DNA of 64,000 nucleotides from Zootoca vivipara (taxonomy: Eukaryota), in NCBI RefSeq assembly GCF_963506605.1, contig NC_083286.1:44888001-44952000 (forward strand), given 5' to 3'. Below are positions 39,353 to 57,534 of the stretch, piece after piece. Position numbers and translations under genes: made by a program. Numbering within the stretch: the first letter of the stretch is position 1; each line of letters starts with the position of its first letter. Under the pieces are notes generated by a model. That model was given only the letters and a program-made list of their open reading frames with translations, ran no database searches and was not told the DNA's origin.

Positions 39353-40327
39353 CTAGGGCAGCATTTTGTTTAGTTGGTCTGTGCTCACGTAACCGCAGGA
39401 CGCGATGAATTCCTTGTCTGGCACTGGGAGAGCGGTGGCATTGAGCACAAGGCCTTGCGGAGATTGCACTACGTGGATGGAGGTATAGTCTGCCACAAGC
39501 GCCTCGGCGCTTCCTGGCTCTTCTTGAACTCCTGCCCTCGCAGGATTCACAGCTGTAGGGGTAAGGCTCTCGGCGGTGAAGTAAGCGTTTTCAGGAAAGC
39601 TCTGGTCTTGAGCTTCTGGCTCGGCCTCTTTGTGAAGTGTCGCAGGGATGCATTTTTTCACATCCAGCTCACAGAAATAGGCACTGTCCATGTCGAAGCT
39701 CGGTTGGCACTGGGCAACTGGTTCTTTCGGAGTCTCGCTCGGATCTCTCCCCATCCTAACCTTTTGCCCCGGGGAAAGCACAACCCTCCCTCCCGGAGTA
39801 ATGTCGCTGACCAGCGTGTAAAAGTCAATGTTGGCCATTGAATTCTGGTTGCTCAGCTGGGTCTTGGCAGGGGGGCTGGTCGTCTCGATAGTGTCGGCGA
39901 CAGAAACATGGGCTTTGGGCTGCTCATCTTCGCCCGGGCAATCAGGCACACCCTCAAGACCTGACGCTGGCTTCTCGTTGTCCTTCTGGTCAAGGCCCAA
40001 GAGATCCTCCTCTTTGTGGTTTGCCTTCTTGGACTGGTCGATGTCTGAGGTTCCGTCACAGGTGTCGCTGGCGCTGAAGTCGGTCTCTGGGATATCCGGC
40101 TCACAGCAGCTGGCTCTCCCAGAATCGTCATCCCTTATGCCGAGGCAGCCGTGAGACTTCAAGCGGTTGTCGCCAAGGAGCCTGTCGGTATCCAATCCTC
40201 CGGTCCTCTCTTCTGCCTCGTCTATATCCAGCTCAATGAATTCTACCCAAGAGTCGTCTCCGTACAGTGGTGGCATGCAGCTACCATGACTGGCTAAGAT
40301 GGAGTTGACTTCGTCAAGTTTTCCTTT
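39353..40327 (-). CDS. GHR: Growth hormone receptor exon 10 (cytoplasmic domain)
   Basis: KGKLDEVNSIL...DSWVEFIELD (UbE motif), DSGRAS degron, DFY, AYF and DYTSIH tyrosine motifs, C-terminus GYVSTDQLNKMLP*. Confidence 0.98.
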   Translation of the reverse strand, partial: KGKLDEVNSILASHGSCMPPLYGDDSWVEFIELDIDEAEERTGGLDTDRLLGDNRLKSHGCLGIRDDDSGRASCCEPDIPETDFSASDTCDGTSDIDQSKKANHKEEDLLGLDQKDNEKPASGLEGVPDCPGEDEQPKAHVSVADTIETTSPPAKTQLSNQNSMANIDFYTLVSDITPGGRVVLSPGQKVRMGRDPSETPKEPVAQCQPSFDMDSAYFCELDVKKCIPATLHKEAEPEAQDQSFPENAYFTAESLTPTAVNPARAGVQEEPGSAEALVADYTSIHVVQSPQGLVLNATALPVPDKEFIASCGYVSTDQLNKMLP

Positions 40328-54395: not shown

Positions 54396-56042
54396 ATTTG
54401 TTCTATTTTGCTATGGAAGATTTCAGCATATCAACAAAACTAGTGCAGCAACTACCAACAAAACTCCTGCCTCATGTTTTGGGGACCCAGATGACAACAG
54501 ATCTCACAAGGGCACACATGACAGAGAAACATTAGGTCTCCCTCCCAGCCCCCAAAAGGTTTAATCTAAGGTAAATATTTAATCTAAGGTAAATATTTGT
54601 TAATGCAACTGGCTTTCTTATTGTGGTTATATAGACGTATCAAATGAAAGCCAAGCAAACAGTACAAAGTGACATTGTGAATTGGTTTATTTGGTTGTAA
54701 TAAAATCTCAAAACGATTGGCAAAAAGATAAAACTTAAAAAGCGCTTTACAAAGAGAATGGAACCCTGAACTGCAAGCAATCCGAAACAGTTAGCAAAAT
54801 GAACGTTAGAGCTGGTGAGCAAAAGGGCACAAGAAGCCCAGCCATTAAAAATACAAGCAGCTATGGAGGCTACAGAAAACCCTCTGCCTTATTCCCAATG
54901 ATGGGTGTGGTTATGGTAAACCAGATCTGATGTAAGTTCAAGAATTCTCGAGCTGGAACCTAGGCAGGATTGAGCTGATAAGCCAGATAAGCAGGTACCA
55001 CATGATACCAGAGTTGCTGTTGTCAGGATTTCTTAAAGATATTGGCCCTAGACAAGAGACAGAGGTTGCGGTTCATTTGTTGATGTCTGCCAGGGTTTAA
55101 ATAGCACAAGGCTCGAAGGGTTTGGAAACCCCAACTTTTACATCATGGGGAAATGAAACCTCAGTGCAGAATCTCCAGGTTGTTGTTGTTGTTGTTGTTT
55201 TTAAGTAGGTAGCTGGATCGGGAAGGACCTTGGAAAGTTGTCAGTAGTCTGAAAAGATGGTACAGGGATGGATAAATCGATGACCTGACTTCGAATAAGG
55301 CAGCTTCCTCTGTTCCATGTGTATGGTATAACCAGGGTAAGGGGGAAACTCCGGACACAAACCCCTTAACTTCAAGATTTCTCTGAAACAAGCCTTCTCA
55401 TGAGATTTCCCGTTATTATGAGCGCATAGTTATATTATTTCTTGGCATAGATCCCCTTGTTTCTTTGTCCCTGGCACGAACTAGTTATGTGAAAGGGAAG
55501 ACTGAAAACCAAAGATAAGTTTTAAACACAGGAAAAGGCTGGGATTGGAATCTGTTGTCACAGTCATTTATGGGGGGAAAAATCCATATATGTAATTCAC
55601 TGGGTCATGCTGACCTCGTTTAGCATGATTTTGTTTAGAACAATCAGAAGGATGATCAACATTGTCAGATAATGGGACCTTTGGACAACAATGTCAGAGG
55701 CAAGAGTGGAAGCCAACAACCAAAGAACAGGCTGGCTAATTCAAATGAGTACGCAAAATTCAGGCCAGCCTCACTTCCAGCTGTTTTTCTTGAGTTTTGT
55801 TGCCCCCCCCTTGGGGTCACAGTATTACAGTGACTGCTGAAGCCACACAGCTGGCAGAATTTCCTTGTTTGGTTTCAGACTCGGGGGTTGGCAACCTTTT
55901 TGGAGCAGCAAGCACATTTCGAATGGTAAGGAGGTGCTGCAGGCACCAGTCACAAAAACGGCTGCCATGGCGGTGTGGTATCACATGACATAACTGCTGG
56001 GAGGGGCATGCTGGTCCTGATTACGAAGACCACCCAATATTG

Positions 56043-56295
56043 AAGAAGAAGAAGAAGAGTTTGGATTTGATATCCCACTTTAACACCACCCGAAGGAGTC
56101 TCAAAGCGGCTAACATTCTCCTTTCCCTTCCTCCGCCACAACAAACACTCTGTGAGGTGAGTGGGGCTGAGAGACTTCAAAAAGTGTGACTAGCCCAAGG
56201 TCACCCAGCAGCTGCATGGGGAGGAACGGAGACGCGAATCCGGTTCACCAGATTACAAGTCTACCGCTCTTAACCACTACACCACACTGGCTCTC
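56043..56295 (-). mobile_element. Squam3-like SINE
   Basis: Reverse copy; TSD ATATTGA. Confidence 0.82.
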
Positions 56296-56507
56296 ATATT
56301 GATTCCTCTCTGTCTCTGTTTCTCTCTCACACACACAACAATGCAGTTACTGTCTGGTAGTGACAGGGAGCATCCCCCAGCACTGGGAAAAAAGGCACAA
56401 GGTGGCCACATCATACTTATTGTCCCTTGCACACACAGCACACTCATGTATGCCTTGCACATATATGAGACATGCATCTCTCTCTCATACATGCTCATAC
56501 ACTGCAC

Positions 56508-57100
56508 TGTGATGGCTGGGACTTGGGCTCGAACTCGGAGACGGAGGAATCGCAGCCAGGGACATCGGCTGAACCTACTCTGGGGCCTGTTCCTGAAGAG
56601 CCTCAGTCTGCTCAGGTTCCCCTGCAACAAGCACCAGCTGGGCCGAGTCAGGGGCCTGAGCCTGTCCTGGCTCCAGGTGCTGAGAATACCTCATTGCCGA
56701 CAGCTGACCCACTACCGGCTGGGTCAGGAGAGGCTAAGGCGACTCCTAGGTCCAGTAACCCTCCGGCGTCTCCCGAGCTGCAGAGACTCAGGGCTGAGAA
56801 GAGGCGAGACCTGAGTACTCGCAGGAGGAGTGCTCGCCTTCAGGCAAGGCAGGGTGGTCAGTCATTGGGGGATCGGGACTGGCCATTACCTCGTCAGAGA
56901 TAAAAGGCGGTCAGACCCTGCCCCAGGTTGTGGGTCCAACATTGCTGCTTGCCAGGTCCTGCCTGTGTTCCTGCTCCTGATCTCGCCTAGTTTCCTGCAC
57001 TGCACTCTGCCTCAGCTTCATCGGACTGACCCCTCGTTGATTCCTTAGACTTCGGACTGGCCCTGGACCTCGCCTCTTGGATTACCCTTGGACCAGTACA
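56508..57100 (+). mobile_element. Solo LTR (Gypsy-like), 593 bp
   Basis: TGT...ACA termini, perfect 5-bp TSD TGCAC, abrupt GC rise and TATA-like GATAAAAG at ~56899. Confidence 0.8.
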
Positions 57101-57534
57101 TGCACTTACACCCAGCCACACATCTATTCCCTCTCTCTCTGAACATGTGCATTGCTCTCTTGTCAGTATCAATGCTCCGTTAACTGCTGTACGGTGAAGG
57201 CAGATTTGCACGATTTGTGACTCCCCAAGCTGAATGCCGTCCACCAGCTATGCATTGTGGAGCACCAAATGATTGCCTCACACAGGGAATAAAATTAGGA
57301 GGCTTCTTTGTGGCTCAAAATGTCACCTTGCATGGCTGATGGGCTTTGTTTGTCTCGATGTCTCACGTAACCTGTGCAGGCCTAGGGCTGCAATTTGAAA
57401 AGGTCTGATCTCATTCAACAAATCTCTCCCCGCAGCCACCTCCAATTATTTGCACAGCTATCCATCTACCATTGCTAGATGAGATTTTAGTGGCATGGAT
57501 GGAGCTTCAAAGGGGGAAATTGCTTCCAATTCAA

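Follow-up and report, generated by a model that had tools for sequence, protein, structure and literature searches.

The window analyzed here is a stretch of 64,000 nucleotides from Zootoca vivipara (contig NC_083286.1, positions 44,888,001 to 44,952,000). Positions 56508-57100 of the window are a solo long terminal repeat (LTR) of a Ty3/gypsy chromovirus. In the lineage of this element, the Pol protein very probably reads through the polypurine tract (PPT) and into the 3′ LTR, where the U3 region encodes a tail with the motif RRSARL. It appears rather likely that the read-through extends over approximately 100-140 codons of the 3′ LTR and that RRSARL serves as an acidic-patch anchor of the integrase, alongside the chromodomain. 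The tail is added behind a chromodomain, a feature that was not visible to the earlier, sequence-only reading of the window, which had proposed an LTR-encoded chromatin tether.

The read-through is seen in relatives of the window family. A protein search with a profile of 12 intact tails matched a 1240-residue Pol of Podarcis muralis. In the cluster of P0005, 14 of the 15 members were examined, and in five of these the protein extends from the chromodomain across the PPT and the LTR tail as far as RRSARL. One other terminates shortly past the chromodomain, and the remainder stop before that point. The layout of the five models is chromodomain-KPGP...GRGDG, then VMAWD...SPDLQRLRAERRRELV(A/S)PRRSARLKA, with GREDG in P0019. 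Two of the five, P0017 and P0019, cover the whole of gag-pol, and the integrase of the full element found in Zootoca vivipara groups with these two (support 100/99). The tail in the window (56517-56903) is homologous to the ends of the Podarcis muralis Pol models P0005, P0012, P0017, P0018, and P0019. As independent evidence at the DNA level, one contig each of two other species, organism B (depth 1487) and organism C, spans the chromodomain, the PPT, and the start of the LTR. Each contig has two single-letter gaps relative to L006, a Zootoca vivipara copy with internal sequence, and by frame arithmetic these gaps place Pol in the frame that begins at LTR base 2. Protein searches for the tail, which were word-limited and used a low-complexity query, returned Podarcis-labelled records and three weak or unlabelled rows only. 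An ESM Atlas search with the P0017 tail gave a best score of 0.78, which is under the lead level, and no record in the RNA data was listed as carrying the L006 junction.

Sister chromovirus families in the same genome also have LTR-encoded tails. These elements are young, with LTR pairs that are 98-100% alike, and 21 loci were examined. Nine of them possess an unbroken open reading frame (ORF) of 1068-1653 codons, which follows the base-2 frame and stops after approximately 94-105 codons of the 3′ LTR. The other 12 consist of two with out-of-frame entry, four broken upstream, one with a stop before the PPT, four without an LTR pair, and L031. The sister tails are acidic and then basic, with basic clusters such as ELRRKRRGKR and ERRRGGLQDKRK. 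The ratio of nonsynonymous to synonymous divergence (dN/dS) of the tail is 0.21-0.39 in five of six sister pairs. An LTR-encoded tail is common but optional among these elements, and RRSARL is confined to one clade. The passage of Pol through the PPT, as the sequence-only reading had put it, is borne out by the five models, the contigs of the two species, and the nine sister loci. Among the individual tails, those of four other chromoviruses were noted as encoded in U3 (L096, 6446-6750; L097, 6426-6741; L102; and L214). Some of these are preceded by long acidic, tryptophan-rich stretches before the PPT. PPTPELRRKRR of the L096 family resembles PPASPELQRLR of the window family.

The features of the window copy are as follows.

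56503-56507, plus strand: left 5-bp target-site duplication TGCAC, identical to the right copy.
56508-57100, plus strand: solo LTR of the Ty3/gypsy chromovirus family, 593 bp, with TG..CA ends.
56512-56514, plus strand: ATG at LTR nucleotide 5, which shares the frame of the motif in the family but not in the window copy.
56515-56518, plus strand: private one-letter gap, displacing the tail frame at its 5′ end, found in 1 of 112 scorable copies.
56517-56903, plus strand: U3-encoded Pol/integrase tail, an acidic Pro/Ser-rich linker followed by a basic motif, ending in TAA.
56763-56852, plus strand: conserved basic segment PPASPELQRLRAEKRRDLSTRRRSARLQAR, approximately family codons 96-125.
56823-56840, plus strand: RRSARL, HMGN/Dsup-like, predicted acidic-patch anchor.
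56899-56906, plus strand: TATA-like GATAAAAG, a putative promoter element and also the source of the stop codon.
57101-57105, plus strand: right 5-bp target-site duplication TGCAC.

Much of what the sequence-only reading described in this copy was found as stated. The solo LTR begins with TG at 56508 and ends with CA at 57100, with TGCAC on both sides. One frame is open from the first LTR base for 131 codons, from 56508 to the TAA at 56901-56903 within GATAAAAG. RRRSARL is present at 56820-56840, and a translation of the window in all six frames contains RRSARL once. The shifted ATG of this copy leads into a second frame, which stays open as far as 56814. The frame from 56508 encodes a net charge of -10 over residues 1-88 and +7 over residues 89-115. 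A Pfam scan of the LTR-encoded tail found no family at E≤10, the HMG14/17 profile included, and likewise none for P0002. The length of the open frame alone is weak evidence because base shuffles of this 61%-GC stretch also yield such frames (a 130-codon frame in 1.1%, and in 3.3% for any of three frames). The case is carried by the family.

The family was collected by a DNA search of the Zootoca vivipara genome in which the best 40 of 242 candidates were scored. The collection consists of 92 distinct copies and 35 more distant ones (127 in total), with 10 rows excluded before the more distant set was built. Most are solo LTRs, and they are scattered over many contigs. Of the 53 copies with both ends, 33 have a perfect 5-bp duplication and 10 have one with a single mismatch. 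The closest relative of the window copy lies at a Kimura two-parameter distance (K2P) of 0.058. The same LTR flanks an element with gag, protease (PR), reverse transcriptase (RT), RNase H (RH), integrase (IN), and chromodomain (G000:C3:3623830-3629272), whose genes are broken and whose LTR pair differs by a K2P of 0.081. The order PR-RT-RH-IN with a C-terminal chromodomain was found, in degenerate form in L031, which groups with P0017. The window family is an old Ty3/gypsy chromovirus. No intact full-length member of it was found by DNA or protein search among the best 40-150 candidates that were scored. L118 is a broken 5′ fragment. L107 (G000:C2:7259500-7269400), the second family copy with internal sequence, has an insertion of approximately 3 kb within the chromodomain region. 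Near-identical copies of a distant solo LTR lie within approximately 215 kb at G000:C13:39585601, 39626894, 39654365, and 39799409, and this cluster probably arose by local segmental duplication.

The coding frame of the family begins at LTR base 2. At LTR nucleotides 9-10, two letters are present in 111 of 127 copies and one letter in the window copy alone, with 15 unscorable. Of the 92 distinct copies, 75 could be scored for the motif frame and 17 could not. In 43 of the 75, the motif shares its frame with LTR base 2 and with the nucleotide-5 ATG. The stretch from ATG to motif is fully open in 24 (the commonest lengths are 321, 330, and 339 bases), and the ATG is kept in 73. The stop of the motif frame is the TAA in the GATAAA box in 88 of the 99 copies that have the box. 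The sequence-only reading had expected pol to be in frame with LTR base 1. That frame was ruled out as the coding frame by the family frame counts, by selection, and by the gap, and the base-1 opening of the window copy is a private accident of this one-letter gap.

The tail is a selected protein sequence, with purifying selection on its frame between LTR subfamilies. Most post-insertion decay drops out of the net divergence between subfamilies, which was estimated for five of them from 111 of 117 aligned copies, with S4 and S5 (three copies each) excluded. The net dN/dS of the base-2 frame is 0.41 (bootstrap 0.30-0.54), or 0.45 without CpG codons, and the remaining two frames of the tail region give 1.15 and 1.23. 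The R/U5 controls give 0.97, 0.59, and 0.96, and each interval includes 1. Around the motif (codons 96-125) the net dN/dS falls to 0.13 (0.05-0.26), with a net dS of 0.31 that is as high as elsewhere, and the linker part gives 0.59. An earlier estimate from four subfamilies agrees (0.27-0.51). The antisense frame in register shadows the signal, as expected (0.40-0.59 unmasked), and singleton changes are spread evenly over codon positions. Eight of the 92 copies, which carried sizeable secondary insertions or had poor ends, were excluded before the indel analysis. Shared indels are triplets in four of five cases inside the frame and in two of eight downstream in R/U5, although these numbers are small. 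Conservation of the frame across copies, which the sequence-only reading had named as a check, is found in the dN/dS values and in the favored triplet indels.

RRSARL resembles motifs that are known to bind the acidic patch of the nucleosome. HMGN2 and Dsup bind it through RRSAR and RRSSR (PMC12487698), and yeast Dot5 does so through RRSARIAT (bioRxiv 10.64898/2026.01.14.699602). Six of the eight residues of the HMGN core RRSARLSA are present contiguously here (RRSARL) and are followed by Q/K-A. The known binders Dsup and Dot5 also differ past RRSxR, so the residues there can vary. An ESMFold2 complex was predicted for H2A and H2B of the same lizard genome with residues 84-118 of the window tail. 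It scored 0.77, versus 0.00 for the best of three controls, with 100% contact agreement between runs and a partner pLDDT (predicted local distance difference test) of at least 67. The score mark is attained by 51 of 78 solved complexes and by 2 of 108 mismatched pairs. In the model, the last arginine of the motif contacts H2A E61 and the arginine four places earlier is near H2B Q47 (mature numbering). This predicted register is the one reported for Dsup R367/R363 (PMC12487698). It is plausible from this model that RRSARL puts the integrase on the H2A-H2B acidic patch.

If so, translation of Pol would pass from the chromodomain through the PPT and continue within the 3′ LTR for approximately 100-140 codons, with the tail retained on the mature integrase as a disordered acidic linker with a basic anchor. 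The chromodomain would read histone tails and the RRSARL arginines would dock on H2A-H2B, so that the integration complex would be held on chromatin. Every LTR and solo LTR inherits the tail because U3 is copied to both ends in reverse transcription, and translation would be limited to the 3′ LTR of full-length RNA. Because the window copy lacks an upstream pol and has its ATG in another frame, it would itself produce no tail.

A number of points weigh against the anchor reading or against parts of its evidence. In L006 and L107, the two internal-bearing copies of this family in the genome (G000), the frame is lost between chromodomain and LTR, at a different position in each. The read-through is therefore not seen in the window's own subfamily. 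We infer that these frame breaks are decay. The Podarcis muralis sequences are database gene models, read at the protein level. RRSARL is kept between subfamilies and in Podarcis muralis, and the basic sister tails (L096-L099, L097/L108, L102/L103, and L214) are without RRSxRL. One sister pair has a tail dN/dS of 0.80. The nearest sister clade stops right past the chromodomain (19 of 25 loci scorable, in 16 distinct places). Neither motif nor tail is needed for chromovirus activity, because sisters lack one or both. The five RRSAR codons are invariant between groups, synonymous changes included (net 0.00-0.04), and protein and DNA constraint are inseparable for RRSAR because its codons vary neither way. 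In addition, 53 places were found with an exact pattern over the motif segment, which biases toward invariance. The confident contacts of the structure model do not include H2A D90/E92, the controls were unrelated proteins and not basic or scrambled peptides, and peptides are outside the calibration. The predicted complex resembles solved HMGN and Dsup complexes and may reflect a memory effect. The ESMFold2 result indicates likeness and not binding, because like complexes are already solved.

The main rival to the acidic-patch anchor is nuclear import, which is a live rival. The tail could be real Pol whose basic end is mainly a nuclear localization signal (NLS) or a non-specific DNA/RNA-binding patch, with the HMGN likeness incidental. 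The sister tails share just the acidic linker and basic cluster, the conserved block of 30 residues is wider than RRSARL, and an integrase C-terminal NLS is known for Ty1 (from titles cited in PMC3605345). However, the S, A, and L residues of RRSARL are unchanged on both sides of a deep subfamily split and in Podarcis muralis, which a simple NLS would presumably not need. The structure model also sets the motif on the acidic patch, and both roles can coexist. As a replacement for the anchor, this explanation appears unlikely.

The U3 frame of the window family could instead be a separate small ORF, entered from the nucleotide-5 ATG by stop-restart (a TGATG overlap), frameshifting, or splicing. 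The chromodomain frame of L107 does end at a TGA that overlaps this ATG, the near-universal ATG would suit such an ORF, and the Podarcis muralis RefSeq model P0002 begins there. TGTGATG, however, is the LTR end motif and is kept regardless, and the two local copies are broken at different places while relatives are continuous. We regard a separate ORF as improbable. A chance open frame in a GC-rich U3, with the conserved segment as a promoter or enhancer DNA element, is very improbable. The shuffles and the silent invariance of the RRSAR codons fit it, but it is contradicted by the frame-specific dN/dS, the triplet indels, the read-through in relatives, and the net dS of the 30-codon block. 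For the frame as a whole, this possibility, which the sequence-only reading had raised against itself, is already largely refuted.

Expression or exaptation of the window LTR by the host has next to no probability: a chance in-frame ATG in the flank gives a frame at 56469-56903 and a related LTR is the first coding exon of P0002, but RNA depth over the 5′ junction is absent, the LTR is antisense to a gene, and its donor-like site is degenerate. In three RNA runs, of which approximately 6% each was read, depth was zero at 56336-56536 and a few diverged reads were found at 56805-57005. Exons at 39356-40327, 41773, 48480, and 50032 on the minus strand belong to the growth hormone receptor gene (PF12772). 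The nearby LTR is on the other strand, approximately 6.5 kb away from an exon of this gene, and probably lies within one of its introns. The window copy is a fossil. To the left of the LTR, a SINE-like (short interspersed element) high-copy repeat at 56042-56290 has thousands of RNA reads, some of them with joints going back 183-184 bases. A splice-donor-like GGTGAGT is present past the motif in 41 of 120 copies and is degenerate in the window copy (56853-56863). The Podarcis muralis RefSeq model LOC114604991 (P0002/P0003) begins with the LTR ATG and switches to unrelated sequence at the donor point. It is possibly an exonized U3 tail.

There are known systems with which the chromovirus of the window can be compared. 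In plant CRM group A, Pol extends into the 3′ LTR and encodes a targeting module there (Neumann et al., 2011, PMC3059260), and a similar extension is described for the beet chromoviruses Beetle and Bingo (PMC3605345). The Pol frame likewise enters the 3′ LTR in the lizard relatives, although not in the two broken local copies. CRM group A is found in plant hosts, and its CR motif replaces the chromodomain; the lizard elements have Chromo (PF00385) ahead of the PPT and, supplied by the LTR, a second short linear motif. HMGN (RRSARLSA), Dsup (RRSSRLTS), and Dot5 (RRSARIAT) share with the lizard tail (RRSARLQA/KA) the core in a disordered protein. The lizard tail differs in being part of a retrotransposon Pol without other HMGN features, and its binding is predicted. 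With vertebrate Sushi/Tf1-type chromoviruses, the Pfam order in P0017, L096, L097, and L102 is shared: gag (Retrotrans_gag, DUF4939, Ty3 capsid), protease, RT, RNase H, integrase, SH3_Tf2-1, and Chromo, along with TG..CA ends and 5-bp duplications. The window clade and three others differ in having approximately 100-140 extra U3-encoded residues, and the sister clade ends directly past the chromodomain. The foamy virus Gag chromatin-binding sequence and LANA of Kaposi's sarcoma-associated herpesvirus (KSHV) are arginine anchors on the acidic patch in genetic parasites. They belong to Gag or to a latency protein, and are neither in an integrase nor LTR-encoded. LANA is named as an acidic-patch binder in bioRxiv 10.64898/2026.01.14.699602.

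An LTR-encoded integrase tail is known from plant CRM, and the version with a chromodomain and an HMGN-like motif in a lizard is unreported in the literature searched. That search, in a collection short of Repbase Reports and of most subscription papers, found no lizard LTR-encoded integrase tail and no HMGN-like motif in a retrotransposon integrase. It is our tentative proposal, somewhat short of likely, that lizard chromoviruses possess a two-handed integrase, in which a chromodomain is paired with an acidic-patch anchor that mimics HMGN, is encoded in U3, and has its stop in the TATA box.

To our knowledge, little is known of nucleosome engagement by vertebrate Ty3/gypsy integrases, and a short, selected, synthesizable motif makes it testable here. 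If the anchor is real, a retrotransposon integrase would join the short list of HMGN-like binders such as Dsup and Dot5, and the plant CRM's LTR-encoded targeting tail would have an animal parallel. 'Non-coding' solo LTRs of lizards would carry a protein module that the host can splice into genes. If the integrase is two-handed, U3 would double as the promoter and as a rapidly evolving targeting cassette, different from family to family. Solo LTRs in their hundreds would then have spread a ready-made exon for nucleosome binding through the host genome, in many cases followed by a splice donor.
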